Assembly: GCF_003945235.1 (NCBI RefSeq)
Contig: NZ_RSDW01000001.1
Location: 1,230,001-1,262,000, forward strand
Source: Edaphobacter aggregans
GTDB lineage: Bacteria > Acidobacteriota > Terriglobia > Terriglobales > Acidobacteriaceae
Length of the DNA: 32,000 nucleotides
Direction of reading: 5' to 3'
Part shown: positions 4,814 through 28,276 of the stretch, in pieces
Numbering within the stretch: position 1 is the first letter of the stretch
Layout of the letters: the number at the start of each line of letters is the position of its first letter
Made by a program: the position numbers and the translations under genes
The notes under the pieces: model-generated
Database searches by the model: none
What the model saw: the letters and a program-made list of their open reading frames with translations, nothing else
What the model was told of the DNA's origin: nothing

Positions 4814-6265
4814 GTGCAGCGGCGTGACTTCCTCAGGTACACCAGCCTCACCCTGGCCCAGGCAGCAACAACCCGGCTCCTGCCCGCCCAGATGCCGATG
4901 GCACAGGACCACGGCTCCACTCCCGCCCCCGAGGGCAAAGCCGACTACACCCTCCACATCGCCCCCGTCACCGTCGAGCTCGCCCCCGAGCGAGTCATCA
5001 GCACCATCGGCTACAACGGCCTCACCCCCGGCCCCGTCCTTCGAATGAAAGAAGGCAAACCCATCACCGTCGACGTCATCAACTCCACCGACGTCCCCGA
5101 ACTGGTCCACTGGCACGGCCTCCTCATCCCCGCCGAAGTCGACGGAGTCGAAGAAGAAGCCACGCCCTTCGTCCCGCCACAAGGTCGCCGACGCTACCAG
5201 TTCACCCCGCGCCCAGCCGGCTCCCGCTGGTACCACTCCCACGCCATGGCCTTCTCCGACCTCCACAAAGGCGCCTACACCGGCCAGTTCGGCTTCCTCC
5301 ACATCGACTCCGGCAACGACCCCGGCCAGTACGATCAGGAAATCTTCCTCGCCCTCCGCGACTGGGAGCCCTTCTTCACCACCTTCATGGACGACACCGA
5401 CGAGGAGGGCCAGAACGACCCGCAACTGGAGAAGCCCGCTGTCCTCAACACCGCCCCGAACGGCCTCGAGGTCAACTCCATGACTTACTCCATCAACGAC
5501 AAGTCCCTCGGTGCCGGCGAACCCATCCGCGTCAAGGAAGGCCAGCGCATCCTCCTCCACCTCCTCAACGCCAGCGCCATCGAGAACCGCCGCATCGCCC
5601 TTCCCGGCCACAAGTTCCGGGTCATCGCCCTCGACGGCAACCCCGTCCCTTCACCCCAACTCGTCGAGACCCTCTTCCTCGGCGCCGGCGAGCGCATCGA
5701 CGCCACCGTCGAGATGACCAACCCCGGCGTCTGGATCCTCGGCGCCACCGAAGACCCCATCCGCGCCGCCGGCCTCGGCATCGTCGTCGAGTACGCCAAC
5801 CAGCACCATCCACCCCAGTGGATCAAGCCCTCCACCCTACGCTGGGACTACGCCATCTTCTCCGCCCCCGAAGGCACCCACCCCACCCCACCCCCAGACC
5901 ACACCTTCGACATGACCTTCGAAAAAATTCCAAGCGGCTCCGGCAAATTCAACACCTGGCTAGTCAACGGCAAACCCTATCCTCACGAGAACGAATTCGT
6001 CCTCCAGCAGGGTGCACGCTACCGCCTTATCTTCCGCAACCGCACTGACGACGCTCACCCCATGCACCTCCACCGCCATCAACTCGAACTCACCGAGATC
6101 AACGGCCGCAAAACCTCCGGCATCATCAAGGACACCGTAGTAGTCCCCTATTACGGCCGAGCCAGCGTCGACTTTACCGCCAACCAACCCGGCCTCACCC
6201 TCTTCCACTGCCACATCCAGCAGCACATGGACTTCGGCTTCAAAGCCCTCTTCCGCTATGTCTAG
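4814..6265 (+). CDS. Tat-exported three-domain multicopper oxidase (laccase/CueO-like)
   Basis: GTG start with an AGGAGA Shine-Dalgarno at 4801-4806. A twin-arginine leader reads MQRRDFLRYTSLTLAQAA. All four copper-binding motifs are present: VHWHG, WYHSH, HPMHLHRH and HCHIQQHMDFGF. Confidence 0.9.
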   Translation: MQRRDFLRYTSLTLAQAATTRLLPAQMPMAQDHGSTPAPEGKADYTLHIAPVTVELAPERVISTIGYNGLTPGPVLRMKEGKPITVDVINSTDVPELVHWHGLLIPAEVDGVEEEATPFVPPQGRRRYQFTPRPAGSRWYHSHAMAFSDLHKGAYTGQFGFLHIDSGNDPGQYDQEIFLALRDWEPFFTTFMDDTDEEGQNDPQLEKPAVLNTAPNGLEVNSMTYSINDKSLGAGEPIRVKEGQRILLHLLNASAIENRRIALPGHKFRVIALDGNPVPSPQLVETLFLGAGERIDATVEMTNPGVWILGATEDPIRAAGLGIVVEYANQHHPPQWIKPSTLRWDYAIFSAPEGTHPTPPPDHTFDMTFEKIPSGSGKFNTWLVNGKPYPHENEFVLQQGARYRLIFRNRTDDAHPMHLHRHQLELTEINGRKTSGIIKDTVVVPYYGRASVDFTANQPGLTLFHCHIQQHMDFGFKALFRYV

Positions 6266-6281
6266 ATAAGTAACCGAGCAG

Positions 6282-7685
6282 CTAATTGCGACGACCCAGG
6301 GTTGGGCGATCGTCGGTGGTGCTGGAGCCGTTGCCGTTATTGGGGTTATTGGGATCGTTGTTGCCGCTCCCGCTGCTGGTTCGTCGCAGGGTGGGCTTGT
6401 TGCCGTTACCCTTGTCGTTGAGCTTGCGCTTGTTTTCGATGCGGGCGAGGCGGGCTTTGACATCGTCAAACTCGCTCGTGGTGACGATGTAGTCAGGCTT
6501 GGCAGGCATGATGGTCGCAATCTCGTCCTCAGAGTGTGCGATGCGATCCGGCGTCTGGGGGTGGTCGGCGAAGACCTTGGAAAGGGTGCCGGGTTTGTGC
6601 TTCTCTAGTGCGTCGATCTTCTCGAAGAACTGGATGAAGGCCTGTGGGTCGTAGCCAGCCTTGTACATGTATTGGAGGCCAAGCCAGTCGGCCTCAGCCT
6701 CATCGATGCGGGAGAACTTGAGGAAAGTGATTGGGATGGCGAGCTGGGTCGCCTCATAGATGCCGTAGCCGGTCCAGGTGCCCTGGGTAAAGATGATCAG
6801 GGGGATGGAGCCGATCTGGACGTAGTTCATCTTCGTCATCTGGCGGGCTGCGTGGTGGGCACAGACGTGGGCCGTCTCGTGGGCCATGACGCCGGCGAGT
6901 TCGGCCTCTTCATCAGCGGCTAGGATAAGGCCGGAGTTGACGTAGAAGAAGCCGCCGGGGAGCGCCATGGCGTTGATCTCATCGGAATCGAGAACTTTGA
7001 TGGTAAAGGGAACCTTGCAGTCGGAGTTCTTGACGATGTTCTGGCCGATGCGGTTGACGTACTCGACAATGACGGGGTCGGTGACGAGATGGGCAGACTT
7101 CTCGATTTCCATGGAGTAAGACTTGCCGTTGCGGATCTCCCAGTCGGTGGAATACCAGTTTCCAATGCCGCGTCCGCCGATGTTGCGGGTGCCGACGGCG
7201 TTGACGTCATCTTCGCTGCCGGGCTTGATATGGGGATCGAGATGCTCACCGGGGGATGGGAGGGAATCGGCCTTCTTGCTGGCAGTGTCTGTAGCCTTGC
7301 TGTCAGTGGTCTTACTGTCGGCCTTAACAGTGTCGGGCGCCTTGGAGTCCGCGTCCACTGTGGTTGGTTTGGTGGTGTCAGGTGTCTTGGTGTCGGTAGT
7401 GGTCGACGTGGTGGTGTCGGGTGCCTTGGTGTCCGTTGCCGTGGGCTTGGTTGTGTTGGACGTCTTGCTGTCCGCTGGTGCGGTGGACTTGGAGGCCTTG
7501 GAGTTCCGAGGTGGTGGTGGAGTATCGGTTGGCTGTACGGAAGGCTCAGTGGTCTGCTGGTTGTCCGGTGACGCTGCCTGCGGATTCGTCGGTTGGGTGC
7601 TGCTTGGCTGGGTGGCCTGGGCATAGGAGAGAATGGTCGAGAGAGCGATGGAAGCGGCTAGACTGAAGCGCGCGACGTTACGCAT
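6282..7685 (-). CDS. Secreted M48-family zinc metalloprotease (BepA/LoiP-like catalytic domain) with long Thr/Asp/Lys/Pro-rich N-terminal linker
   Basis: A GAGGAG Shine-Dalgarno lies upstream of ATG 7685. The signal peptide is MRNVARFSLAASIALSTILSYAQA. The HExxH motif HETAH sits at 6867-6881. The M48-type C-terminal segment reads EAEADWLGLQYMYKAGYDPQAFIQFFEKI. A low-complexity linker spans about 7250-7613 and carries reiterated (S/T)K(A/T)PDT(T/V) motifs. Confidence 0.85.
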   Translation of the reverse strand: MRNVARFSLAASIALSTILSYAQATQPSSTQPTNPQAASPDNQQTTEPSVQPTDTPPPPRNSKASKSTAPADSKTSNTTKPTATDTKAPDTTTSTTTDTKTPDTTKPTTVDADSKAPDTVKADSKTTDSKATDTASKKADSLPSPGEHLDPHIKPGSEDDVNAVGTRNIGGRGIGNWYSTDWEIRNGKSYSMEIEKSAHLVTDPVIVEYVNRIGQNIVKNSDCKVPFTIKVLDSDEINAMALPGGFFYVNSGLILAADEEAELAGVMAHETAHVCAHHAARQMTKMNYVQIGSIPLIIFTQGTWTGYGIYEATQLAIPITFLKFSRIDEAEADWLGLQYMYKAGYDPQAFIQFFEKIDALEKHKPGTLSKVFADHPQTPDRIAHSEDEIATIMPAKPDYIVTTSEFDDVKARLARIENKRKLNDKGNGNKPTLRRTSSGSGNNDPNNPNNGNGSSTTDDRPTLGRRN

Positions 7686-7832: not shown

Positions 7833-8252
7833 TTACCAGGTGTTGTAAGAGGTGCCTTCGGAAGAGGTTTCCTGGGCGCCGGAGTGAACGTCGCTGATAC
7901 CGGATTGGGTCTGGTCGATGGTCATCAGGGAGTCGTCCTGGACAGCGAGCCACGTGTCGCTACGGTGGGTAAAGGGATCGACAGGCATGGCTTTGAGGTA
8001 GCCAGCCTGGACGAGATCGTCAAGGGTTTGTGGAGCCTTTTCTTTGTCGACGGTGTAGGAGTCGATGGCGGTGCGCATGGTGTGGAGGTCTTCCTTGAGG
8101 ACGGCCTCGCGTGCGTGGCGCACGTTATTCATATAAGAAGGGATAGCGATCGCTGCCAGCGTGGCAATGATGATCATAACGATCATCAACTCGAGGAGAG
8201 TGAACCCTTGCTCGGCGTGGCGCGGGGAACGGGATGGAGGGGTGGCTACCAT
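7833..8252 (-). CDS. GspG-like pseudopilin (type II secretion / type IV pilin fold) with class III prepilin signal
   Basis: Leader and cleavage motif: MVATPPSRSPRHAEQG|FTLLELMIVMIIIATLAAIAIPSY, with Glu at +5. The GspG-type body reads REAVLKEDLHTMRTAIDSYTVDKEKAPQTLDDLVQAGYLKAMPVDPFT. The ATG at 8252-8250 overlaps the stop of the upstream gene (ATGGTAG). Confidence 0.85.
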   Translation of the reverse strand: MVATPPSRSPRHAEQGFTLLELMIVMIIIATLAAIAIPSYMNNVRHAREAVLKEDLHTMRTAIDSYTVDKEKAPQTLDDLVQAGYLKAMPVDPFTHRSDTWLAVQDDSLMTIDQTQSGISDVHSGAQETSSEGTSYNTW

Positions 8253-8800
8253 GTGGAGTATTTTGTCCCGTCTAGGGCGGTGCCGGTGCTCTTGGTGTGG
8301 ACGTCAAAGACGTTTTGACCGCCGAATGAGTCGGAGTCCGTATCATCCTGGTTGGAACGGAGGCCCCATTCCGCGGTGCCAGTCATGGGATCGATAGGGA
8401 TGCGGCGGAGGAACTTGACTGTCTTGCCCTGGATTTCAACGCCGTTGACGAGGGTTTCGAGGTCGGGGGGATAGTTGTAGCTATCGGCTTTGGTCTGCAT
8501 CCCGCCCTTATCAGCTGCGTCTTTGTAGGCGTCGATGGCGGCGCGCATCTCCCATAGGTCGCGGCGGAGCTCGCGCTCCTTGGTTCGTTTGACCTGGAAA
8601 CGGGCCAATGGAATGGCTGCAGTGGCAAGGATGGAAACGATGGCCACAGTGATGATGAGTTCGACGAGGGTAAGGCCGGATTGAGGATTGCTGGGTGTAA
8701 GGGAGGAACCCACCTTCGCGCAAAAGCTGCGCGAAGGTGGAGTAACCGGATTTTCGACCGGGACCAGAGATGAAGTCACCGGGTTGTTGCGAGCGATCAC
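8246..8800 (-). CDS. GspG-like pseudopilin with unusually long prepilin leader
   Basis: Cleavage motif ...SNPQSG|LTLVELIITVAIVSILATAAIPL, with Glu at +5. The GspG-type body reads RELRRDLWEMRAAIDAYKDAADKGG...YPPDLETLVNG...RIPIDPMTG. The start is ambiguous. GTG 8800 overlaps the secretin TGA as GTGA. In-frame GTGs at 8779 and 8713 are alternatives. The TPPSRS motif shared with the next gene's leader argues that the long leader is translated. Confidence 0.8.
   Translation of the reverse strand: MIARNNPVTSSLVPVENPVTPPSRSFCAKVGSSLTPSNPQSGLTLVELIITVAIVSILATAAIPLARFQVKRTKERELRRDLWEMRAAIDAYKDAADKGGMQTKADSYNYPPDLETLVNGVEIQGKTVKFLRRIPIDPMTGTAEWGLRSNQDDTDSDSFGGQNVFDVHTKSTGTALDGTKYSTW
8710..8740. repeat. 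Perfect 13-bp inverted repeat (stem-loop) within the leader-coding part of the first pseudopilin gene
   Basis: CCACCTTCGCGCA (8710-8722), loop aaagc, TGCGCGAAGGTGG (8728-8740). The two arms are exact reverse complements. The function is unknown. Confidence 0.7.
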
Positions 8801-11223
8801 TTCACATGCACCACGGCCTGCGAACCGACGGCCGGGAGATTGGCCTGGGCGCTGTTACGGGCGCCGACCTTGACGAGAGCGAGGTTGGAGTCACCGGCTG
8901 CTGTCGCCTTGAAGGTGAGGGTGGCGATACTTCCCTGCCCGTTGACGCCGGCTACATTCGGCGGGCGGGAGGTGGATATGGTAACGAGACCATTCCCCTC
9001 ATCACGATGGACGATGGAGACTGCTTGACCGTCACGACTGAGCAAGTCGCCAGCGTCGACATTGACCAGTTCGAGGACACTGGGATTGAACTGGACCTGG
9101 AGCGGCACAGAATAGACGTCGCGCGCTCCATTGAGCATGATGGCAACCTGGAAAGTACTGCCTACGGGTTGGTTAGTAGCCGGAGCGTTGACGGTAAAGC
9201 TTATGGGTAAGCCACCGGTGTTAGGCGTCTGGCCCGGTGGAGTATTCAATATTTGGCCCGGCGTCGTCGGCGGGGCTATGGGCTGAGACTGCTGCTGAAG
9301 CTGCTGGACCATCGCAGCAGCCGCATTAGCTGCCGAGGTCGGCTGACCTGCCTGGGTGGGCCTCCGTGGATTTACGGGAAGAGCCAGGTCGGCGGCGGCT
9401 TGATCGGCAGTGATATTTGCCCGGCGCAGTTCGATCGACTGTCCAGTGCCGGTATCAATAGCGCGAGTATTGATACGGGTCAGAACCGACTCGCGGACGA
9501 TGTGAGGAATGAGGAGGAAGACGATCTCATCCCGTTGGGTCTCTCTGGACTGGGTAGAGAAGAAGTACTTGAAAAATGGCAATTCGCCGAGGCCCGGTGT
9601 ACCGCTGACACCCCTATTGTCCTGACGGGTGATGATACCGGCGAGGATACTGGGCTCGCCCTCCTTGAGTTGGATGGTTTGCTCGCTGATGCGCTGGCTG
9701 ATGACGGGCTCAGTCACGCCGGAGATGGTGACGGAGCTGGTCTGCGATGAGACCTCGACCTTGAGCTTGAGGGAGACCTCGCGGTCGTAGTGGACGGTGG
9801 GGGTCATGTCGATGTTGACGCCGACGTCGAGATAGGTGAACTGAGTCTGTACTCCAATACTGGCGACGCCGGTGGAGACACCGGCGTTGTAGGAGCCAGT
9901 GGCCACGGGAATCTTGGAGCCGATCTTGAGCGTGGCACGCTGGCCGTCGGTGGCGCGGATGCTCGGGTTCTGCAGGAGGCGAGTGTCGGCATCGGACAAA
10001 AGGGCCGTAAGCGTGCCTGGGCCGACGGTGACGGCAAAGTTGGTGGCGTTCAGATTCGCCAGAGTATTGAGGGTGAAGTTGGACGGCGTAGTGGTAGTAG
10101 TGGTAGTGCTCGAAGAGGAGCTGGAGGAAGTGGTGGTGCTGGGGCTGGCCTGAGGCTGTATCGAGATGGACTGCGGGAGCGTGATCCCAAGGTTGCGCAT
10201 CCGGTCGCGGTTAACCTCGAGGATTGCGACGTCAACAACAACCTCGGGACGGGCGCGGTCCAGATCGTTGAGAAGCTTTTGTGCGAGAAGCAGCTGGTCG
10301 GGGGTGGCACGGACGACGATGGCGTTCTGGCTAGGAACTAGGTTGACCTTGGTGCTGGGATCGAGGACGTTGCGAAGGGCTTGGGTGACTTCGTTCTCGT
10401 CGGCCTGTTGGCTGGCGTTGGTGAGGTAAAAGGTCTGGACGGCCTGCTCATCGAGGTCAGTGCGCTTGGTGCGGGTATTCTGGGCGACGAAGATGGTGTT
10501 GGAGGTGACAGGCTTATAGAAGGTTCCAGCGAGAGCACCAACGATGTGTAGGGCATCGGACCAGCTGACATTTGTCAGGTCGACGGGAATGCGCTTGGAC
10601 GTGTAGTCGGGATCAAACAGGACGTTGAATCCAGCGGCCTTGCCAATTGCCTGATAAATGACCTTGACGTCCTCAACCATGTGGATTGCGGGGATAGGAT
10701 CGTTGGACAGAGGTTTCAGCTCAACGGGGCCGGCTATGGATCCGAGGTTTCTAAGAATTTCATCCTGGTTTGACATCTGCTCTTGGGGCGGAGACGCACC
10801 TGACGGCTGCGACTGTTGCTGCTTGAGCAGAGGCTGGACTTGGTCTATTTCCTGGCTGGCGGTCTGGTTGCTAGGGTCTATCTGGAGGGCGCGTGTGAAC
10901 TCGTTGAGCGCTCCGGTAAGGTCGCCGCTTTGGCGCAAGACGCGGCCGCGGTCGACGTGGGAGACAGCAGCTTGGAACTTCATGCGCTCGTAGCGCGCCT
11001 TGTAACGGAGATCCTTGGGGCTCTTGAGCAAGGCCTGATGGTAGGCTTCGTAGGCAGTGTCCCAGTCCTGATGCGCCTCGGCGGCCTCACCCTTCTTATT
11101 CCAAGAGCTTGCGGATTGGGCATGAGCCGAAGCAGAAGTAAAGCCTGCGAGGCAGGACAGAAGAAGGAGCACCTGAGCGGCGCGTATCGATAGCGTACTG
11201 ATTCGTCTTTTCCCGCGACCCAT
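8797..11223 (-). CDS. Secretin (GspD/PilQ family) with N-terminal TPR module and C-terminal cohesin-like domain
   Basis: The track ORF extends to 11424. I prefer ATG 11223 because it is followed directly by a signal peptide, MGRGKRRISTLSIRAAQVLLLLSCLAGFTSASAHA.
- TPR-like repeats at about 10864-11103.
- A secretin core at about 9490-9960 (ATDGQRATLKIGSKIPVATGSY...GTPGLGELPFFKYFF...EIVFLLIPHIV).
- A C-terminal cohesin-like beta-sandwich at about 8800-9215. Confidence 0.85.
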   Translation of the reverse strand: MGRGKRRISTLSIRAAQVLLLLSCLAGFTSASAHAQSASSWNKKGEAAEAHQDWDTAYEAYHQALLKSPKDLRYKARYERMKFQAAVSHVDRGRVLRQSGDLTGALNEFTRALQIDPSNQTASQEIDQVQPLLKQQQSQPSGASPPQEQMSNQDEILRNLGSIAGPVELKPLSNDPIPAIHMVEDVKVIYQAIGKAAGFNVLFDPDYTSKRIPVDLTNVSWSDALHIVGALAGTFYKPVTSNTIFVAQNTRTKRTDLDEQAVQTFYLTNASQQADENEVTQALRNVLDPSTKVNLVPSQNAIVVRATPDQLLLAQKLLNDLDRARPEVVVDVAILEVNRDRMRNLGITLPQSISIQPQASPSTTTSSSSSSSTTTTTTTPSNFTLNTLANLNATNFAVTVGPGTLTALLSDADTRLLQNPSIRATDGQRATLKIGSKIPVATGSYNAGVSTGVASIGVQTQFTYLDVGVNIDMTPTVHYDREVSLKLKVEVSSQTSSVTISGVTEPVISQRISEQTIQLKEGEPSILAGIITRQDNRGVSGTPGLGELPFFKYFFSTQSRETQRDEIVFLLIPHIVRESVLTRINTRAIDTGTGQSIELRRANITADQAAADLALPVNPRRPTQAGQPTSAANAAAAMVQQLQQQSQPIAPPTTPGQILNTPPGQTPNTGGLPISFTVNAPATNQPVGSTFQVAIMLNGARDVYSVPLQVQFNPSVLELVNVDAGDLLSRDGQAVSIVHRDEGNGLVTISTSRPPNVAGVNGQGSIATLTFKATAAGDSNLALVKVGARNSAQANLPAVGSQAVVHVK

Positions 11224-17665: not shown

Positions 17666-19702
17666 TCACTTGCCTGCGGGTGATGTGCTCGCGGTAGTTG
17701 TGGGAGCGACAGTGAGGACTACACTTTCCTGGTCCTTAGTCTCCACCTTGTTATAGAAGGTGCGGAGGTCAAAGTACTCGTTCGGCAAAAAAATGATCTC
17801 GCCCAACGTGTAATCCCGGCGGAAGGTGACGCTGGTTGGAGTGGACTCCGTTTTAAGGGTGTATGCAGCGGAGTTCTGAAATTGTTGTTTATCGCCGGTT
17901 GGGAGCGATTCCACTTTGAAAGTTGAGGGAAAGTTGATGCGAACGGCATCCTGCGCGACTTGGGGGTAATGGAAGTAGACGGCGACCTCCCGCTTCTCGT
18001 GAGGAAAGGTTGGCTTGGAGTTGGTTTCGAAGATATCGCCGGTGATCAGGAGACGCTTTCCGGTGGAGGAGCCGATCGGACCTTTGACGTAGAAGTTGAC
18101 GGAGAGAGGCTGTTCGTAGTCTTCGAGTTTTTCGATTGAGGATAGCTTGACGTCCATCCCCTGCGGCAGGAGATGTTCCAGACTGACGCGCAGTTCGCGT
18201 TCGAGACTGGTCTGGTCGCCTGTAAGCGAACGCTGCCGCCAGCTCATCGCCGGAGCCCCAATGTAAGTCATCTTGATGGCTCCAGTAACGATTCCCTGCT
18301 GATCCATGGTCAGGTTGGCAACACGCTGAACGTGGGATGCGGTGTAGGGTTCACGCGGAGTCTGAATCAGAGCGGTGCCTGAGTCGGTCTGGCGCAGACT
18401 GCCCGCCATGGTGTGCTTCCAGGCGAGATGCTGATATGGGCAGTAGCGCGAACCGGGATCGAAGTATTGCTCCTTGCCATCGACGTTGACGATCGCGATG
18501 TCGTCGTCGAATTGCGACATGTTGAGATAGCCCGCAAGAAAGATGTTGTGATCACGACTGACGACTGTGGAGAGATAAGCCTTCATACCAGCAGCGCGAG
18601 CCATAGCGACGAAGAGGGTGGCAAGCTGGTCTCCGTTGCCGCGCTTGTGCTCCCATATGTCGTCGGTGTTACGGACCTCGTGAAGACCCTGGGCCTTTTC
18701 TTCAGCGTCAGAGTGTTCGCGGGTAAAGTCGGTGTTCTCGAGCTTCATGACAGCGGCGTATATCTTGCGAAGCTTCTGGTCCTGCGTGTCTGTGGGAGTG
18801 GTTAGATCCTGAACAGCGGCGCGGATGCCGGGGCCGGGCCCAATGAATTTATCGCGCAGCTTGGACCAGTGCTTGCCCTCGCTCTTCCAAGCTTCGTCAG
18901 CGGTGCGGTAGGGCGAATAGTAGAAGAGAACGCGGAAGGAGAGGCTGGTTATCGGTGGCATGTACTCCTCCTCGGGGGCGGGAGGAACGTCGTGGGCGTT
19001 GACTTCGAAAGTGTACCGGCCATTATTTCCGCCCACGCCGGGTAGTTGTGTTTTTTTGAATTCCGCAGTGGCAGGCAGGACAGGAAACCAGGCGATGCTG
19101 CTGGTAAGCTGACCACGATCGTCACTGCTCACAAGCTGTTTGTCGGTCGGCTTCCACATATAGTGAGCTTTGCGGGTGTAGAGGTCGGATTGGATGTACC
19201 AGCTGGGAGCCATGAACCAGTGATCGTCCATACGGCGGGTGTATCTATACTCGATGATGCTGCCTACCTCGACGTCGGGTAGCGTAAAGACCTTGGCCAT
19301 ATGGCGCATCTCCTTGGTCTTTTCGATGAGTTTGTCGTAGGGCTTGCCGCTGAATGGGATGGCGGTGCCGTCAGGGTGAATGGTTCGACCGGCGATGTCG
19401 TTGACACTGATGCCGCCCTCGCCTTTCGAGTACGGCAGCTCAACGTTGGCGTACTCCTTACCCTTCTCCGTAAGGACCTTGAGACGAATGTAGATGCTGA
19501 ACATGTGCAGATCGTCTTCAGTCTTCTCTTCTCGGAAGAGATAGACGGCAGCGGCACCGGGAACCTCGGGCTGCGAGGTCATGGAGAGCTCTTCTTTGGT
19601 GGGGACTGTCCACTGATCGGCTCGAGCAAGCGGGGCGGCAAGGCTGATAAGTGAGGCAAGGAGTACAGTTCGGAGGAGGCGAGAGCTTAACGTGCACTTC
19701 AT
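17666..19702 (-). CDS. Secreted DUF3857 / transglutaminase-like / DUF3858-type protein lacking the catalytic Cys and His (predicted inactive paralogue)
   Basis: The signal peptide is MKCTLSSRLLRTVLLASLISLAAPLARA. The overall architecture parallels the upstream paralogue. The segment aligned to the transglutaminase core reads RGNGDQLATLFVAMARAAGMKAY, with Gly (18632-18634) where the paralogue has Cys. FDDDIAIVNV occupies the place of GNHMIAAIEI. Confidence 0.7.
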   Translation of the reverse strand: MKCTLSSRLLRTVLLASLISLAAPLARADQWTVPTKEELSMTSQPEVPGAAAVYLFREEKTEDDLHMFSIYIRLKVLTEKGKEYANVELPYSKGEGGISVNDIAGRTIHPDGTAIPFSGKPYDKLIEKTKEMRHMAKVFTLPDVEVGSIIEYRYTRRMDDHWFMAPSWYIQSDLYTRKAHYMWKPTDKQLVSSDDRGQLTSSIAWFPVLPATAEFKKTQLPGVGGNNGRYTFEVNAHDVPPAPEEEYMPPITSLSFRVLFYYSPYRTADEAWKSEGKHWSKLRDKFIGPGPGIRAAVQDLTTPTDTQDQKLRKIYAAVMKLENTDFTREHSDAEEKAQGLHEVRNTDDIWEHKRGNGDQLATLFVAMARAAGMKAYLSTVVSRDHNIFLAGYLNMSQFDDDIAIVNVDGKEQYFDPGSRYCPYQHLAWKHTMAGSLRQTDSGTALIQTPREPYTASHVQRVANLTMDQQGIVTGAIKMTYIGAPAMSWRQRSLTGDQTSLERELRVSLEHLLPQGMDVKLSSIEKLEDYEQPLSVNFYVKGPIGSSTGKRLLITGDIFETNSKPTFPHEKREVAVYFHYPQVAQDAVRINFPSTFKVESLPTGDKQQFQNSAAYTLKTESTPTSVTFRRDYTLGEIIFLPNEYFDLRTFYNKVETKDQESVVLTVAPTTTASTSPAGK

Positions 19703-19756
19703 CTTAGGGTCGTTCCTTCTTTCATTTGCAGCAGGAGGCTGACTTTCGTTTAGTAG

Positions 19757-21751
19757 CTACTTCTTTTTGAGGACGGCGCTACTTTGTTCGTCGGCAGCAA
19801 TAACGCCTGCCAGTTTCTGGAGATCGCTATACCGGTCGGCGGGAAGAGTGACCTCGCGGACGGTATAGGTGCGACTGTAGTGGAGGACGTTGTCCTTGAC
19901 TTGAGTGGAGCTCTCGTAGGCGGCGAAGCCCATGTCGAGCTTGACGGGCTCAGGAATCTCATCCACCGCGTAACCGGCGGGCAGCTCGATGTCGTAGTCG
20001 TCGATTGCCTGCATAGTCTCCTTCATGTCGATGGGGATGCGGCGTGTTTTGTGTTCGGTGTATAGGCCCTCACTGCCTAGGACGCGAGGGCGCACCATGA
20101 GCAGTGGTCCCATCACTTTGCCGAAACGGTCGGCGTTGAGAGCGAAGGTCGTGGTGAGGTCCTTGTTAAGGGCCTCGGCGTTTTCAACCTTGAAATCGGA
20201 GACTTTGAAGGTGGTGAAGTCCTGCTCGAGGAGGTGGTCGAGAGAGTCGCTTTGCTCCTTGGCATCACCAGAGGTGTAGAGAGTTCGGCGGCCTTCGGAG
20301 ACATCGCCGAAGCGCTTCTCTGTAACTGTACCTTTCAGGGAGCCATCGGGCTGAAGTTGGAAGCTGGCGGTGCGGCGGATGGTATTGAGTTCCGGTGCGA
20401 GGAGGGGAAACTTGATGACCTGGCTGTTGCTGCCTTCCATCAGGATGCCGTAGCTTCCCTGGAGGTTGTGCTCCAGCTGGCCGAAGGCAGTCTTGTCCCA
20501 TGTCGGATCGAAGATGAGGTATTGCCGGCCTGTCTTTGCGGTGACGACACTGCGGAGCTTTGGCGAGCTGTATCCCTTGGGGATTTCGATGGCCGCGATC
20601 ATGTGGTTGCCCACGATGGATGGGGCGTCGGGATCGATGACGCCGCGCCGGGTGTCGACCATCACGAGCGCAGCGTGAATGTCGACGGCAGAGAGCATCG
20701 CTGCAAGCAGGGTTGCCTTGTCCTTGCAGTCGCCGTAGCGATTACGGAAGATATCGCCGGCGAAGTGAGGCTGGTAGCCGCCAATGCCCATCTCGATGAC
20801 GAAGTAGCGGACCTGCTTCTGAACGAATTCAGCGATGGCTTCGGTTTTGTCGTAGAAATCGGTCTTGCCGGCGGTAAGTTCTTTTGCCTTAGCGGCGATC
20901 TCAGGGGTAGGGATAAGGCGATCCTTAGAGAGAGTCTGATACCACTCGCCGATGCTTTGCCACGAACCCTGACTTGCGGCAGGAGCTCCTGGCGGGGCGT
21001 AGTGCACGGTCATACGGCCGGCGAGGGCCATCTCAGAAGGACGCATCTGAACGTGCTGAAGTTCGATGGCAGGAGTGTCATTCATCTCCCATCGCCAACG
21101 CTGGTGCTCAAGATCGATGGACTTGGTCTGCTCATGGTGAGCCCATACTGTGCCGTAGGTATAGCCAGGAGGAAGCTCAAGTGTGAAGGCTTGATGGAGA
21201 CGCGGAGTGTCACTTTGGAAGTGCCAGGTCTTCTCAGTCAGGTAAGGCAGGACACGCTGTTCGTACTCGTAGGCGACGACGCCACCTGGATCGCGGCCGG
21301 GCGCCCGCGCTGCCTTGAATTTGATGTCTTCAAAGAGATTGCCTTGGCCGGGATAGCCGAACTCGACGATCTCCTTATCCTTGACCTCATATTCGTGTCC
21401 GTCGGGACCGACGCTCCACACATGGAGGGAGAGAATCTTCGTGTCTTTGTCGAAGGGCACATAGACGATGGCCTCGTCCCTGCCCTGAGGCCGGAGAATC
21501 TTTATAGCGGAACGGTAGTGCTCGATGGCGCTGCCGTCGGGGGCTACGGAGTAGGTCGTGTCCTCAAGAAGAATTGCCGCGTTGGTCTCTGGGGTGTAGG
21601 CTGGGAGTTTTTGCGCAGCGGCTGTGCGAACCCACTCCGGAACACTGTCCGGCTTGGCTGCGAGTAACGGCGACGACGTGATGACAGCGAGGACGGCAGA
21701 GACGAAGAGATGCTTACGGACTCTTCGCAGTGGAACAGTGCAGCCAATCAT
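19757..21751 (-). CDS. Secreted DUF3857 + transglutaminase-like (Cys-His-Asp) + DUF3858-type protein
   Basis: The N-terminus is signal-like (KHLFVSAVLAVITSSPLLAAKP). The core motif is RYGDCKDKATLLAAMLSAVDI, with the Cys codon at 20726-20728. GNHMIAAIEI and LIFDPTWD supply candidate His and Asp residues. The family call is from memory of DUF3857/transglutaminase proteins. Confidence 0.75.
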   Translation of the reverse strand: MIGCTVPLRRVRKHLFVSAVLAVITSSPLLAAKPDSVPEWVRTAAAQKLPAYTPETNAAILLEDTTYSVAPDGSAIEHYRSAIKILRPQGRDEAIVYVPFDKDTKILSLHVWSVGPDGHEYEVKDKEIVEFGYPGQGNLFEDIKFKAARAPGRDPGGVVAYEYEQRVLPYLTEKTWHFQSDTPRLHQAFTLELPPGYTYGTVWAHHEQTKSIDLEHQRWRWEMNDTPAIELQHVQMRPSEMALAGRMTVHYAPPGAPAASQGSWQSIGEWYQTLSKDRLIPTPEIAAKAKELTAGKTDFYDKTEAIAEFVQKQVRYFVIEMGIGGYQPHFAGDIFRNRYGDCKDKATLLAAMLSAVDIHAALVMVDTRRGVIDPDAPSIVGNHMIAAIEIPKGYSSPKLRSVVTAKTGRQYLIFDPTWDKTAFGQLEHNLQGSYGILMEGSNSQVIKFPLLAPELNTIRRTASFQLQPDGSLKGTVTEKRFGDVSEGRRTLYTSGDAKEQSDSLDHLLEQDFTTFKVSDFKVENAEALNKDLTTTFALNADRFGKVMGPLLMVRPRVLGSEGLYTEHKTRRIPIDMKETMQAIDDYDIELPAGYAVDEIPEPVKLDMGFAAYESSTQVKDNVLHYSRTYTVREVTLPADRYSDLQKLAGVIAADEQSSAVLKKK

Positions 21752-21855
21752 GAAGCCCCTTGCGCACGACTCTCTTATACCGAATGGGGGGAGCCATGCC
21801 GGAGTTGAGGGATCTGCGTGCCAGAGTTATACGACGAAGGACGTTACAGTTCAAG

Positions 21856-21888
21856 AAAAATCAAGCCCCAAAAGATCCTCTTCGGGGG
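21856..21888 (-). terminator. Possible rho-independent terminator about 70 nt after bcsC
   Basis: The minus strand reads CCCCGAAG-aggat-CTTTTGGGG, an 8-bp stem including two G-U pairs. It is followed by CTTGATTTTTCTTG. The stem is weak and the T-run is offset by 5 nt. Confidence 0.35.
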
Positions 21889-21958
21889 ATTGCGCTGAAC
21901 TAAATTCTGGTGTTCTTGAATTCTACATCCGAATCATTCCCCGCTGAAATGGCCGTGG

Positions 21959-24900
21959 CTACGGAACGCGGAGGGGACGGAAGCCGGTCGTCGGGAAGAG
22001 GCCCGTCGCGTAGCTTTCGGTTGGATACTGCGGCTTGAAGGTGTACCGCACGAAGAATCCACCGGAGACGGTGTTGTAGTTGTTCGTATTGTTGGCGACG
22101 AGGTAGCCGCCTACGTACCAGTGCTCGGCGACATGGTAGGCCGCCTCAGAGTTGATCGCATAGTTCAGACCTGTGTCGCTGTTCTGGGGGAAGAATGCGT
22201 TGCCTGAACCGGTCTGTAGTGGGCGGTCGAGCGGGAAGTAGGGTGCGCTGTCTTCCTGAAATGTCTGTACGCCGATGCTGCCGTTGATAGTGTAGTGGAA
22301 GTTCGTCTTGTAGTACCCGTTGAAGGTGACCGGGACCGAGGACAAGAAATAGATGTTGGGGCTGAAGTAGCCCCCCTGTCCGTAAGTCATGCCGCGCTCG
22401 TTGTGGTCGTAGTGCATCCCGAAGAAGCCGACTCCCATGTTCAGGCTGCCATATCCTGGCCAGTTCTTTACTCGGAAGTAGGAGCCCATCGTTCCTTCGA
22501 ACTTGAGGTTATCGAGGACGTGATAGCCATTGAGGACGGCACCGCCACCATTAACGTAGATCCCTGCACGTTCGTTGCCTATATCGAGACGAACGCCACC
22601 GCCAGTAGAGATGACGCCACCCCAGATATTGCCGGCGAAGACCGGCGAGATGGTGCCGGGATCGCGGAGGCCGGCGTAGGAAAGCTGCGTGTCCTTGACC
22701 GAGTCGCGGTCGCCGAAGAAGGTAAAGTGGCCGCCCATCGGACGCCACTGCGCGCGGCCTGTAATGTTAGAAACCAGAAATCCGTAAGGTGTGTAACCCG
22801 CTGCGAGGCCGATGTTAGCCGTCGTAAGCTGCAGTTCGCCGCCTACGCCGCTGGCGAACTGCTGAGCGGGTGTGTTCAGGGCATTTGCAGGCAGCGTGCC
22901 GAGGATCGGGATAGTGCCAGTGGCGGTCTGGAAGAACGCGCTATCGATAGTGCCGGAGTTGAGGAAGACGGCTTTGGGAACGACAGTAAGACGGACCGTT
23001 TTGCCCAGCACTGCGGAGGCTTCGAATGGGGCCTCGAGGTCGGTGAGGCGATCGAACCCAGCTGTGCCGCTACGATAACGGGCGTAGCCTGTGCCGCCAA
23101 CCCAACCGCTGTAGGAGCCTTCGAGAGCTGCCAGTTCGAGTTCAGTCTTCGCGCGCTGCGAGAGCGGTCCTCCAGGGACGACAGATGCGTCGTAGGAACC
23201 ACGGAGGGGTGGGACGCTCTTGGCAACTAAGTCGGCATCGGTAGGCGGTGTTCCTTGTGGAATGGGTGCCCCGAGAACGGGATAGCCGGAGTCATTGAGA
23301 GGCTGAGGAACGTTCGGATAGTTAAGCGCTGGGAGAGCGGGAGCTGGAGGCGGCGCAGTTCTTGTAGGTGCCGGCTGCGATGTGTGGCGACGAGCCGTGC
23401 TGGAGGTGCTGTGAGGATACACTCCCGGCTGAGGATACTGCTGGCCGATACCATTGCCCGGCGGCTGTGACTGGCCGGTATATTGCGCGTTCTGCGTTGT
23501 AAGGGTGTCCGGTGGCGGGTTGCTCTGTCCCATCATTACAGGACCGGAACGGGAGCTGGGGCGTGCATTAGGCACGTAGCGTGCGGTGGGCAGGACGTCG
23601 GTGATTTCGGCCTGTGCCGGCGCCGGTCGCGGACTGTTGTCACCTAACTGTATCGGGACAGGAGATGGAGTATAGCCAGCGTTCTGCGATTCCGGCACAT
23701 AGGGAACGTAGGGGCCGTAGACCTCCTGCGGAGGAGGAGCAGCCGTGATGGGAAGCGGTTGCAATTCTGCCCGCTGTGTTGCGGCGAGGATCTGCTGACG
23801 CTGGTAGTCCTGGGTAGAGACGATCTCCGGGGCAGCGGACGGATAGAGCTGCGGCTGGACGGTGGCTGCCTGCGGAACATAGTCCTTTAGGGTCGATCCA
23901 CCGGAGCCCTGTTGCGGGGTGCGTGAGCTGGGATTGGCCATGTACTGCGGGACGACGCTGGAGGTTCCGTTGTACACATTACCGTTATTCATATTGACCT
24001 GGACCGGAGCCTGTCCGTAGGAGTTGGTGTAGCTCGGCAGGTATGGCTGGGTTGGCTGACTGGGCTGCGAGGCAGCATCGGCAGCGTCCGGAGTGCCCAG
24101 AAGGGTTGCGAGATCCTGCGGCTCGGCCGGTTTGGGCAGGCGGGCCACCGGCATGGGCTGGCTGAGTTCGTTGGCCAGTTCGGCGCCGGGGTCCCCTGGC
24201 GGAAGAGCGGCGAGCGAAGCCTTGTAGTAGTCCGCTGCTCGGCTGCTGTTTCCACGGGCCTGCTCGAACTTGGCTCCAAGGTTGAGCATCTCGGCGTCCT
24301 TGGGATAGGCATCGAGGCCGTAGCGCAGCCATGTCTCGGCGATCTTGGTGTCTCCCGCAGCTAGAGCTGCGCCGACGGCGGCCTTGTAGTCGGAAGCAGA
24401 GGCCGAGGTCATGTCCTGTGCCTTGAAGATGGCAACGGCCTGCTTGGGCAATCCCGCGCGGGCGTATCCGGAAGCGAGTGCGCGGAGGACTCCGGGGTTG
24501 TCGGGGAATGACTTTGCCGCAGCGTTGAGGATGGCAAGGGAACGTTTGACGTTGCCGGCAGCGGCTGCCTGATTGGCTCGCCGAACAGCCCAGTTGGTCC
24601 AGATGGTTTGGACTGTGCGGCGCTGCTCGTCAGAGAGATCCTGACGACTGCCAAGCAGCATTAACTGACGATAAAGCCCTGCGTCGTTGCTACCATTGAA
24701 CAGGAGCCATGCATCCTGAATGTCAATGTCGGCCGGGGCAGAGGTATGCTGTAGCGCGTAGTGTTGCTGGACGCGGTTGATGAAGACCCTGGCCTGCTGA
24801 GGCTGGCCGAGCGCGTTGTAAACGGCACCCATCGTCTGGAGGTATTCGACGTCAGACTCGAGCTGAGTGCGCACAGCGGGAGGTATCTGCTGAACCTGTG

Positions 24901-26908
24901 CCAGGGCCTCCTGATCGCGGCCTGCGGTATGAAGCGCAGCGAGCAGTCCCTTCCATGCATCGGGATGGTCGGTGTTTTCAGCCAGAACCTGACGGTAGAT
25001 GGGGTAGGCCTGTTGCGGATTGTTGCGCATCAGGTAGATACCAGCCAGTTGGAGTAGGACTGCCGCGCTGGGTTTCTTGCCTGCGTTGACCTGCTGGGCT
25101 ACTGCTTTCTCCAGAATGTCCTGCGCGATATCGAGTTTGTTCTGGCTCTGGTAGACGGCGGCTACGGTCGTCTGGAAGCCGGGATCGCGCATCGCAGCCT
25201 GGTAAGTCGTCGGCGGCATGTTGCCGAGTGTCTGCACGGCCTGCGCGTCCTGCTTCATCGCGTGATAGACACGGACAAGACCTTGCCAGGCTTGCGTGTT
25301 GTTCATATCGATGGCGAGGACCTGACGATAGAGCCCAGCGGCCTGATCGAGATGATTGGCCTGCTGGAGAAGGCTTGCGTACTGGAGCTGTGTCTCAACC
25401 TGTAAACCATGCGCATCTGCAGGAAACGGCAGATCGAGGGCACTGCGAAGAACACGTTGTGCGTCGGCGTCGCGGCCCACAGAAGAGTAGGCGGAAGCGA
25501 GCGTGCGCAGGAAGTCCGGATCCTTCATCAACTGGCTGTGGACCGCAGGGGGGATACGGCGCTCCGTCAGCAGCGCCTGTGGAGCGTTGCCCGCGCCGTA
25601 CTGCGCCATGAAGAGGCCGCGCCATGCAGCCGTGGAGGTGGGCTTTGCCTTGACGTAGCGATCAAATATCTGGATAGCCGCCTCAGGCTGCTGCGCCTTG
25701 AGCAAGGTGCCGCCGAGACCTTCAAGCGCCTCGGTGCTTGTGGGCCGCATGGCAAGCGCTGCCTGATACTTCTGCTCGGCGGTGGTGAGATCGTTTTCAT
25801 TGAGGGCAACGGAGCCCTCGCCCATGGTGAACCAGAAGCGGGCGGTTTCAAGCGCCGTATCAAGGCCAGCATCGCGCGCACCGTACTGCTTGGCCTGCTC
25901 AAGGAAGCTCATGGCTCCGCCGAAGTTGGACTGCTGCATGCGCACATAGCCCATTCCAGCAAGAGCGCGGGGATTCTGCGGCTCGCTTGCGAGGATGGCC
26001 TTGAAGCGAAGCTCAGCATCATCGAGACGCTTGGCGTTCAGGGCGTTGTAGGCCTCCTGCTCCTGTGCGGTGCGCGCTCGCTGCTCGGCGGTGAGGGCGG
26101 TACCATGTGTCGCGCTGGGCTTGGGCTGGTTGTGCAGAGCTTGGCTTAGTTGCGCATCATTATGCTTGGCGAGATACGCTCTGATGTCGGCTGCTGAGGC
26201 CGGGTTTGCTGAGTCCCACACGAGCGACTGGCGCAGCGCCTCGACCGCCTGAGGACTATCGGGATGCCGCTCTAAGAGCTTACGGCCCTCGGCGCGGGTC
26301 TGCGGGTTGTAGGTCAGGATGCGGCCAAGCGCAATCTGATATCGCGAGTCGTTTGGATACTTCTCGACCAAGGAACGCAGCCCTGCGATGGCATGGGGAC
26401 GGCCGTCATCGGTGGCCGACTCGGTCTCGTAGTAGGCGAGAGCCCAGTCGCCGGGGGGTGGCGTGCTGCCAAAGATCTGACGGTAGATCGCCATCGATTG
26501 CGCATACTGTCCGGACTGAGCGTACTTCCCTGCCTGCTGAAGCTGGGCTGCCTGACTCTGCTGCGAGCCCATGTTCTCAATGCGGGAGATATTCGGGTCG
26601 TTCGGGTTAATTGCTCTCAGACGATCCAGATACGTGCTTGCCAGCGGAGCATTACCGTTCAGCTTGGCTGCACGAGCAAGACCAGCCAATGCATCAACAT
26701 TCACGGGATCGGCAAGCAGTACCTGCTGCCATGTCTGCTCGGCCATGTCCATCCGGCCGCGAAGCTCGAAGGCGTGTGCCTTATCGAGCAACGTCTGGGT
26801 CGCCGATTGTGTGGTCTGTGCGCGCAGTGCAACGGGAACCGACGTGCAGGCCAGAGCGCCAAATAGAATGGCCGCCGCCAAAGGCCGAATTGACGCAACA
26901 CTCTTCAT
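21959..26908 (-). CDS. bcsC: Cellulose synthase operon protein C (long TPR array + C-terminal outer-membrane beta-barrel) with a ~300-aa Pro/Gln-rich insert
   Basis: 1649 aa. The signal peptide is MKSVASIRPLAAAILFGALACTSVPVALRA. Many TPR-like repeats fill about the first 900 aa. The C-terminal region (ELELAALEGSYSGWVGGTGYARYRSG...YFRVKNWPGYGSLNMGVGFFGMHYDHNERGMTYGQGGYFSP) is typical of the BcsC C-terminal domain. Confidence 0.88.
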   Translation of the reverse strand: MKSVASIRPLAAAILFGALACTSVPVALRAQTTQSATQTLLDKAHAFELRGRMDMAEQTWQQVLLADPVNVDALAGLARAAKLNGNAPLASTYLDRLRAINPNDPNISRIENMGSQQSQAAQLQQAGKYAQSGQYAQSMAIYRQIFGSTPPPGDWALAYYETESATDDGRPHAIAGLRSLVEKYPNDSRYQIALGRILTYNPQTRAEGRKLLERHPDSPQAVEALRQSLVWDSANPASAADIRAYLAKHNDAQLSQALHNQPKPSATHGTALTAEQRARTAQEQEAYNALNAKRLDDAELRFKAILASEPQNPRALAGMGYVRMQQSNFGGAMSFLEQAKQYGARDAGLDTALETARFWFTMGEGSVALNENDLTTAEQKYQAALAMRPTSTEALEGLGGTLLKAQQPEAAIQIFDRYVKAKPTSTAAWRGLFMAQYGAGNAPQALLTERRIPPAVHSQLMKDPDFLRTLASAYSSVGRDADAQRVLRSALDLPFPADAHGLQVETQLQYASLLQQANHLDQAAGLYRQVLAIDMNNTQAWQGLVRVYHAMKQDAQAVQTLGNMPPTTYQAAMRDPGFQTTVAAVYQSQNKLDIAQDILEKAVAQQVNAGKKPSAAVLLQLAGIYLMRNNPQQAYPIYRQVLAENTDHPDAWKGLLAALHTAGRDQEALAQVQQIPPAVRTQLESDVEYLQTMGAVYNALGQPQQARVFINRVQQHYALQHTSAPADIDIQDAWLLFNGSNDAGLYRQLMLLGSRQDLSDEQRRTVQTIWTNWAVRRANQAAAAGNVKRSLAILNAAAKSFPDNPGVLRALASGYARAGLPKQAVAIFKAQDMTSASASDYKAAVGAALAAGDTKIAETWLRYGLDAYPKDAEMLNLGAKFEQARGNSSRAADYYKASLAALPPGDPGAELANELSQPMPVARLPKPAEPQDLATLLGTPDAADAASQPSQPTQPYLPSYTNSYGQAPVQVNMNNGNVYNGTSSVVPQYMANPSSRTPQQGSGGSTLKDYVPQAATVQPQLYPSAAPEIVSTQDYQRQQILAATQRAELQPLPITAAPPPQEVYGPYVPYVPESQNAGYTPSPVPIQLGDNSPRPAPAQAEITDVLPTARYVPNARPSSRSGPVMMGQSNPPPDTLTTQNAQYTGQSQPPGNGIGQQYPQPGVYPHSTSSTARRHTSQPAPTRTAPPPAPALPALNYPNVPQPLNDSGYPVLGAPIPQGTPPTDADLVAKSVPPLRGSYDASVVPGGPLSQRAKTELELAALEGSYSGWVGGTGYARYRSGTAGFDRLTDLEAPFEASAVLGKTVRLTVVPKAVFLNSGTIDSAFFQTATGTIPILGTLPANALNTPAQQFASGVGGELQLTTANIGLAAGYTPYGFLVSNITGRAQWRPMGGHFTFFGDRDSVKDTQLSYAGLRDPGTISPVFAGNIWGGVISTGGGVRLDIGNERAGIYVNGGGAVLNGYHVLDNLKFEGTMGSYFRVKNWPGYGSLNMGVGFFGMHYDHNERGMTYGQGGYFSPNIYFLSSVPVTFNGYYKTNFHYTINGSIGVQTFQEDSAPYFPLDRPLQTGSGNAFFPQNSDTGLNYAINSEAAYHVAEHWYVGGYLVANNTNNYNTVSGGFFVRYTFKPQYPTESYATGLFPTTGFRPLRVP

Positions 26909-27054
26909 ACGTTCGCCGCTCGGATGGACGATGCTGGAGGACTAGCATCGACACCTGTGCCGTCCCTCCGAAGCTTACCGCTTTTTTACGGATTTGTACC
27001 GTTTTATTCTGGTATTTACTGTTTTGTTATTGCTTGATTCAGCAATTGTTGCAA

Positions 27055-28245: not shown

Positions 28246-28276
28246 AATGGTTTCTCCCCTGAAGGGCCCCATGTGC

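Follow-up and report, generated by a model that had tools for sequence, protein, structure and literature searches.

Here we describe a gene of Edaphobacter aggregans for an 808-residue secretin that carries, in a single chain, an N-terminal tetratricopeptide repeat (TPR) head and, on a long C-terminal tether, a cohesin domain. The gene lies on the reverse strand of a 32,000-nucleotide stretch of DNA, in the following called the window (assembly GCF_003945235.1, contig NZ_RSDW01000001.1, positions 1,230,001 to 1,262,000), to which all positions refer unless the genome is named. We propose, with a probability of roughly 0.55, that this protein forms the PulQ-type pore in the genome's only machine resembling a type II secretion system (T2SS; a type IV filament machine), that its tethered cohesins reside in the periplasm and bind a partner other than a dockerin, and that its TPR head is a pilotin-like module.

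The chain consists, in this order, of a signal peptide, the TPR module, an N0-like domain, one N domain, the secretin core, a linker and the cohesin (table 1). Translation truly begins with the ATG at 11223, because the motif MGRGKRR is kept at the N termini of homologues, whereas the possible extension up to 11424 is not conserved; the sequence GGAAG is found 6 nt 5' of this ATG. The Pfam Secretin profile (PF00263) matches residues 408–577 with 119.2 bits against a cut-off of 27.5 (E 1.8e-34) and Secretin_N (PF03958) residues 263–326 with 31.9 against 28.2 bits, while a weak Pfam match to STN/N0 (residues 199–246, E 0.052) becomes significant in orthologues (to E 2.4e-6). By its profile scores, the protein is a secretin that belongs to neither of the canonical subfamilies, with 140.8 bits against a curated cut-off of 351.35 for GspD (TIGR02517) and 112.3 against 284.35 for PilQ (TIGR02515), and Pfam and NCBIfam found neither an AMIN nor an S domain in it. 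The nearest solved structures are the T2SS secretins XcpQ (5wln, E 1e-21) and ExeD (6i1x), with PilQ further off (E 3e-11). In a full-length AlphaFold2 monomer, the overall predicted local distance difference test score (pLDDT) is only 62.8 and the barrel is poor, but the TPR (residues 38–138) and cohesin (residues 674–807) parts are confident. An earlier, sequence-only reading of the window had already named TPR, secretin and cohesin parts, all of them correctly as judged by predicted folds and by TPR, Secretin_N, Secretin and Cohesin profiles that score above their cut-offs, and its coordinates translate well into residues 41–120 (10864–11103), 362–379 (10087–10140) and 670–808 (8800–9215). 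Its 'N-domain-like repeats' hold up only in part, since N domains are indeed present, but as one weak STN/N0-like domain and a single Secretin_N rather than as a repeat array.

That the C-terminal domain of about 135 residues is a cohesin, as the same reading had claimed, is borne out by profile and predicted structure alike. Pfam Cohesin (PF00963) matches residues 677–784 with 49.7 bits against 24.1 (E 5.8e-13) and with 54.5 bits in a search of the genome, where this is the sole cohesin that the profile finds. Modelled by AlphaFold2 from 20 homologues, the last 149 residues form nine strands with a pLDDT of 86.5, and when this model is compared with the PDB by Foldseek, the top 50 matches are all cohesins, the best being 2xdh of Archaeoglobus fulgidus (E 9e-10, template modelling (TM) score 0.71–0.76), with cohesins of Clostridium perfringens reaching 0.85; sequence searches of the PDB also rank cohesins first, albeit weakly. 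On these grounds of profile and modelled fold, the cohesin identity is genuine. The domain thus resembles the non-cellulosomal cohesins (2xdh; 2jh2 and 2vo8 of C. perfringens), which also are nine-stranded jelly-rolls (TM score 0.71–0.85) and occur singly in proteins outside cellulosomes, but it is only 13–20% identical to them and, unlike them, is fused to a diderm outer-membrane channel in a genome without a dockerin. What had been seen as a Pro/Gln/Ala linker is a tether of about 95 residues with a Pro/Gln-rich spacer in front of the cohesin. Residues 577–670 are disordered in the AlphaFold2 model except for a helix at 632–645; the tether helix TSAANAAAAMVQQLQQQ (9286–9342) is specific to the family, and the spacers of distant orthologues are rich in Pro, Ala, Glu and Gly and very different in length. 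Within the cohesin, residues 721–808 are conserved to the same degree as the barrel core among 120 close homologues, with hardly any variation in the last 13.

This combination of domains is by no means restricted to one species. The best 120 homologues (68–100% identity), several of them assigned to Edaphobacter, all show the same set of Pfam domains and are annotated in their sources either as 'general secretion pathway protein D' or as 'cohesin domain-containing protein'. Across 401 sampled genomes of the phylum, representing 227 genera, this type of cohesin was found in 199 genomes and 129 genera, and within the family Acidobacteriaceae in 33 of 33, nearly always in an open reading frame of 720–1000 residues. 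Ten out of ten distant orthologues (26–41% identity) retain TPR, an N domain (STN and/or Secretin_N), Secretin and Cohesin, with the Cohesin match falling slightly below the Pfam cut-off in two. As the architecture recurs throughout the phylum and in distant orthologues, it is, as far as sequences tell, an old and selected design rather than a local fusion. Two Granulicella genome papers list 'Cohesin 1' without comment in their tables of carbohydrate-active enzymes, a count that fits the single secretin-borne cohesin seen here. A literature search, of which a 2009 survey of non-cellulosomal cohesins was not part, returned no paper on a secretin with a cohesin domain and none naming GSU1778. 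The remark of the earlier reading that it knew of no characterised secretin with such a tether holds, as far as this search goes, for the tether itself but not for the type of machine, which by gene order matches the genetically studied Pul/OxpG system of Geobacter.

To which machine does this secretin belong? The complete genome of 6.15 Mb encodes one GspE-type ATPase, one GspF, one prepilin peptidase and homologues of PilM, PilN and PilO, and no PilT-like second ATPase was found in it. It contains only three canonical prepilin genes, two of which directly follow the secretin gene with overlapping stop and start codons and are thus coupled to it in translation. Pseudopilin 1 is found directly downstream of the secretin in Acidobacteriaceae as well as, with 49–55% identity, in distant operons, and pseudopilin 2 also has a conserved synteny both in Acidobacteriaceae and in distant loci. 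Two secretins thus share a genome with only one GspE/GspF set. The second one, an orphan of 652 residues with an N-terminal TPR and no cohesin, is encoded next to a PAS histidine kinase (genome positions 5973245–5975203; locus L008, 8245–10203, reverse strand). The ATPase cluster itself (genome positions 1944000–1953000; locus L007) comprises genes for GspF, GspE, PilM, PilN, a PilO-like protein, a Pro-rich bitopic protein and a GspK-like pseudopilin; it contains no secretin and lies about 0.7 Mb from the secretin cassette. In distant members of the phylum, however, all these pieces are contiguous in a single operon, with the order GspF–GspE–PilM–PilN(–PilO)–x–secretin (with cohesin) in loci L114, L116 and L121, followed by pilins in L114 and L116, and with parts of the order GspF–GspE–PilM–PilN–PilO–x–secretin retained in L122, L119 and L120; the GspE proteins of the distant loci are 57–64% identical to that of E. 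aggregans. It is for this reason that the secretin cassette and the remote ATPase cluster are, by comparative gene order, one machine that has been split in the Acidobacteriaceae. In addition, the N-domain of GspE is of the MshEN type, which binds cyclic di-GMP (c-di-GMP), and a MASE1-GGDEF cyclase gene adjoins that of GspF, which together suggest that the machine may be under c-di-GMP control.

The closest parallel is the Pul/OxpG system of the Geobacteraceae. According to the supplement of PMC3543383, the Pul cluster of P. carbinolicus has the order pulF-E-M-N-O-P-Q-G-oxpG, with pulQ listed as a 'secretin lipoprotein', and OmpB, a multicopper oxidase, is described as depending on the Pul system for its secretion (Mehta et al. 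2006, cited in PMC3543383). The same order F-E-M-N-O-P-Q-G-G is found in the acidobacterial loci L114, L116 and L121 and in part in L122, and further points of likeness are a secretin annotated as a lipoprotein in Pul and followed by two pseudopilins as well as a platform of the PilM/N/O rather than the GspL/M/C type. Unlike in Pul, the cluster is split here, with the secretin and two pseudopilins apart from the rest, and the lipobox is degenerate in the family. As one element of our proposal, and with the probability given for the whole, gene order and annotation would make this secretin the acidobacterial counterpart of PulQ. With GspD, for which P. aeruginosa XcpQ (5wln) provides the best sequence match among solved structures, it shares an N0, a ring-building N domain and the barrel, but it has one N domain instead of N1–N3, no S domain, and an added head and tail.

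The TPR head is well defined. At residues 89–119, TPR_2 (PF07719) scores 40.2 bits (cut-off 27), TPR_12 extends over residues 37–116, TPR_1 matches as well, and the TPR models jointly span residues 37–123. In NCBIfam, the region is similar to the N termini of two further families, the Amuc_1098 secretins and the TraC lipoprotein of Myxococcus, whereas its score for the PilW pilotin family (TIGR02521) is 12.7 bits against a cut-off of 154. For the Akkermansia family (NF042912), the likeness extends over residues 32–130 (model positions 35–135, E 3e-9) but remains far under the family cut-off (35 versus 750 bits); judged from this match, TPR-headed secretins occur in other phyla too, although we know of no cohesin tail in the Amuc_1098 family. 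A secretin is here associated with a TPR module and, in the greater part of the phylum, with a lipid anchor, just as in PilQ with its lipidated TPR pilotins (PilF, PilW, Tgl) and in the liposecretins HxcQ and BfpB. In contrast to the PilQ/pilotin pairs, TPR and secretin are fused here in one chain, the TPR is short (about 100 residues) and outside the PilW family, and an AMIN domain is lacking.

Could such a secretin pilot itself, as the sequence-only reading had suggested? A canonical lipobox (LAGC, AAGC, TAAC, IVGC and similar) directly precedes the TPR in nine of the ten distant orthologues, and for this reason the ancestral form would seem to have joined a lipidated TPR pilotin and its secretin in one chain, which speaks for the idea. 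Closer to home it is less well supported, since among 107 homologues from the family the Cys is present in 73 and a PROSITE-like lipobox in only 36, whereas 96 carry a conserved signal-peptidase I site of the form AxA/Q[ST]A (the slash marking the site) about 10 residues past the lipobox Cys. By these counts, the lipobox is decaying within the Acidobacteriaceae. A lipoprotein call from the E. aggregans protein alone was discarded as ambiguous, in line with the decay seen in the family: it carries both LLSC, which fits the PROSITE-style lipobox pattern, and the conserved AHA/QSA, and the lipid anchor of its TPR head is uncertain or in the course of being lost.

The probable location of the cohesin follows from the topology of the barrel. 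In the alignment with XcpQ, the motif GELPFFKYFF and the strand ending in IPHIVRES (residues 541–580) fall on its amphipathic-helix loop and final barrel strand; the amphipathic-helix-loop motif and last strand proper correspond to residues 541–575, and the alignment continues as far as RPTVVRD of XcpQ, where the S domain starts. In solved T2SS secretins (PDB 5wln, 5wq7), the last barrel strand returns to the periplasmic end, and it is there that the S domain begins. Because this strand ends on the periplasmic side, we infer that the tether and the cohesin are most likely periplasmic. Independent support comes from a second protein context. There, cytoplasmic PilZ and GAF domains are followed by one transmembrane helix and then by a cohesin of the same clade (39–41% identity), and since sister proteins have the periplasmic TonB_C domain or Sel1 repeats in the cohesin's position, this clade appears to occupy a periplasmic place there as well. 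This family of PilZ–GAF–transmembrane–linker–cohesin proteins (metagenomic P0214, P0220, P0226, P0233, P0246 and P0272; loci L123 and L124) has no member in the E. aggregans genome and is found on contigs of less than 4.3 kb, too short to show secretion-gene neighbours; the domains of these proteins suggest c-di-GMP receptors whose periplasmic heads can be exchanged. A third context is seen in P0126 and P0320, where a polytopic membrane protein of about 12 transmembrane helices ends in a cohesin 63% identical to that of the secretin and with the same final LPAVGSQAVVHVK, while the homologue of this membrane part in E. aggregans (genome positions 2213891–2214958) has no cohesin.

Three other ways of understanding the cohesin have to be weighed against a periplasmic domain with a non-dockerin ligand. 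One would place the C terminus outside the cell and let the cohesin be displayed at the surface as an adhesin or as a docking point for extracellular proteins. Most characterised cohesins do function outside the cell, the machine has components of the PilM/N/O type, and flow cytometry placed the C termini of BfpB and PilQ, two secretins of type IV pili, outside the cell (Lieberman et al. 2015). In the same study, however, the C termini of type II and type III secretion secretins were not detected on the surface, and it is to T2SS GspD rather than PilQ that the present secretin is closer (E 1e-21 versus 3e-11); as both the periplasmic end of the last barrel strand in solved secretins and the position of the same cohesin clade in the PilZ–GAF proteins also argue against it, surface display seems quite improbable. 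We consider it similarly improbable that the cohesin is a socket for dockerin-bearing cargo or a dockerin-bearing partner, i.e. a site of classical calcium-dependent docking at the secretin, which is what the sequence-only reading had proposed. In favour of this, fold and Pfam family are truly those of a cohesin, some of its distant relatives are found in proteins with several cohesins (5 of 25 such proteins also contain dockerins), and dockerins are encoded in 78 of the 199 genomes of the phylum that have this cohesin. Yet in the complete genome of E. aggregans no match to Dockerin_1 (PF00404) reaches the cut-off, the best sub-threshold match being one calcium loop in a protein resembling TonB-dependent receptors, and two regular-expression scans of the genome for tandem calcium loops returned FG-GAP-like repeats only. 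Dockerins are present in just 2 of the 33 genomes of the family and 1 of 13 of the genus, leaving 31 family genomes with the cohesin–secretin and without a dockerin. Across the phylum, they are about as frequent with this cohesin (39%) as without it (72 of 202 genomes, 36%), a comparison that, the genomes being related, is descriptive rather than a statistical test and that lends no support to an obligatory cohesin–dockerin pair; moreover, family f20, with at least 14 dockerin matches per genome, has this cohesin in none of its 8 genomes.

The third alternative is that the cohesin fold plays a purely structural role, anchoring the secretin to peptidoglycan or another glycan or oligomerizing into an outer ring, and in this way replaces the S domain with its pilotin, AMIN domains or accessory rings. 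Several observations are in its favour: the secretin has neither an AMIN domain nor a recognizable S domain, its cohesin is placed where other systems have stabilizing accessories and persists where dockerins are absent, and in the PilZ–GAF proteins the domain is interchangeable with TonB_C, which bridges the envelope. The cohesin jelly-roll also resembles carbohydrate-binding modules, as would suit a glycan anchor. On the other hand, no carbohydrate-binding family was matched and the top Foldseek hits are cohesins rather than carbohydrate-binding modules, and a long low-complexity tether of highly variable length is better suited to a module that reaches out and captures than to a fixed ring. 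All in all, a structural role seems unlikely, though less so than docking or surface display.

Periplasmic cohesins with a non-dockerin ligand, our preferred reading, could work as follows. After export by Sec, about 15 subunits would assemble into a barrel, as in solved secretins, with the N-terminal TPR, N0 and N domains hanging into the periplasm. Once past the amphipathic-helix loop and the final descending strand, each chain would exit the barrel at the periplasmic end and thus at the place of the S domain in T2SS secretins, so that about 15 tethered cohesins would form a ring of protein-binding modules around the channel. The ligand of these cohesins would be a non-dockerin periplasmic partner, either a component of the machine or a cargo protein, which would be held near the pore. 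The TPR head would serve as a pilotin-like module that is lipid-anchored in most of the phylum and formerly was, or possibly still is, in E. aggregans. A more specific and rather speculative version, to which we give clearly less weight, is that the tethered cohesin is a dockerin-free periplasmic capture device that retains, at the channel mouth, either a specific cargo or a regulatory partner in the inner membrane; here, the PilZ–GAF–transmembrane–cohesin receptors of relatives represent one candidate class of partners. Several points weigh against a periplasmic capturing cohesin on a PulQ-type pore. Dockerins are short and divergent, and a non-Pfam dockerin could have escaped the search; the link to Pul is one of gene order and annotation; the topology relies on homology to solved secretins, as the barrel is poorly modelled as a monomer; and the extracellular C termini reported by Lieberman et al. 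(2015), together with the PilM/N/O-type parts, leave room for a surface location.

A further peculiarity of the protein is its loop of 18 Ser and Thr residues, for which the sequence-only reading had noted mixed codons and no slippage, as codon and repeat analysis confirms. The codons (AGC ACC ACC ACT TCC TCC AGC TCC TCT TCG AGC ACT ACC ACT ACT ACC ACT ACG) comprise four different ones for Ser and three for Thr, and the sole repeat is a 9-nt unit in 2.2 copies, so that a slippage tract is ruled out by the mixed codons. All 120 close homologues have a Ser/Thr/Gly-rich loop of similar length at the same position, with a drifting sequence; among the ten distant orthologues, a Ser run is present in one, and in several others the loop is short or rich in Gly and Ser. 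The loop aligns to a variable segment of XcpQ that is flanked by the first barrel strand and the conserved 'LTALLS' strand and that, in solved secretins, forms the lip or cap at the outer end of the barrel; by analogy, the loop would be placed there as well.

Downstream of the two pseudopilin genes, a gene for a secreted M48 metallopeptidase completes a gene order—secretin, pilin, pilin, M48 peptidase—that is kept in the Acidobacteriaceae, with an open reading frame encoding HExxH in most of about 60 full-length loci listed. The 147-bp gap before the M48 gene contains no terminator-like site. The peptidase, which has a long linker rich in Thr, Pro, Asp and Lys, could be a BepA-like envelope quality-control protease tied to secretin assembly. 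Abutting the M48 gene on the forward strand (4814–6265) is a gene for a three-domain multicopper oxidase with the twin-arginine signal RRDFLR. As a conserved linked cargo this oxidase was rejected, since a search of the flanks of 92 related loci returned no homologue, and its adjacency is therefore specific to this genome. Right at the junction of the two genes, at about 6000–6300, the GC skew flips from about -0.27 (4–6 kb bin) to +0.16 (6–8 kb bin), which fits a rearrangement or a replication landmark as well as the non-conserved left neighbourhood. At the other end of the window, positions 17666–31999 (reverse strand) contain a gene of glycoside hydrolase family 8 (GH8; BcsZ-like), two large open reading frames (1649 and 1240 residues) and two DUF3857/transglutaminase-like paralogues, and probably represent a cellulose-synthesis region.

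Table 1. Parts of the secretin and the genes downstream of it, by position in the window (a slash in a motif marks the processing site)
Feature	Position	Strand	Description
Secretin gene, PulQ-like	8797..11223	-	808 residues; open reading frame and translation, Pfam/NCBIfam matches
Signal peptide	11119..11223	-	residues 1-35; Cys24 (codon 11152-11154) in LLSC; AHA/QSA signal-peptidase I site
TPR module	10810..11112	-	residues 38-138; five predicted helices, AlphaFold2 pLDDT >90
N0/STN-like domain	10480..10683	-	residues 181-248; AlphaFold2 beta-alpha fold, pLDDT ~75
Secretin_N ring-building domain	10246..10443	-	residues 261-326; beta-alpha-beta-beta-alpha secondary structure
Secretin barrel core	9484..10245	-	residues 327-580; holds GELPFFKYFF and last strand ending IPHIVRES
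Pure Ser/Thr loop, 18 residues	10087..10140	-	residues 362-379; variable lip/cap region of the barrel
C-terminal tether	9205..9483	-	residues 581-673; conserved post-barrel segment, helix TSAANAAAAMVQQLQQQ, Pro/Gln-rich spacer of variable length
Cohesin domain	8800..9204	-	residues 674-808; ends in near-invariant LPAVGSQAVVHVK
Pseudopilin 1	8246..8800	-	prepilin motif G/LTLVELI; Pfam N_methyl, NCBIfam; start overlaps secretin stop codon
Pseudopilin 2, GspG-like	7833..8252	-	G/FTLLELM; Pfam N_methyl, T2SSG; TIGR01710 E 3e-15
Secreted M48 metallopeptidase	6282..7685	-	Pfam Peptidase_M48, E 3e-29

Overall, a pore whose own chain carries a tethered interaction domain is conserved across a phylum that is among the most abundant in soil, and the same type of machine exports a multicopper oxidase in Geobacter. 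Both the recognition of folded cargo by T2SS and the assembly of secretins that lack classical pilotins or S domains are poorly understood, and if the tethered cohesin really were a capture device, it would represent a new mode of cargo selection or gating in T2SS as well as a new class of cohesin ligands. Beyond secretion, a genuine cohesin can stay under long selection in genomes that are free of dockerins, which bears on non-cellulosomal cohesins in general.

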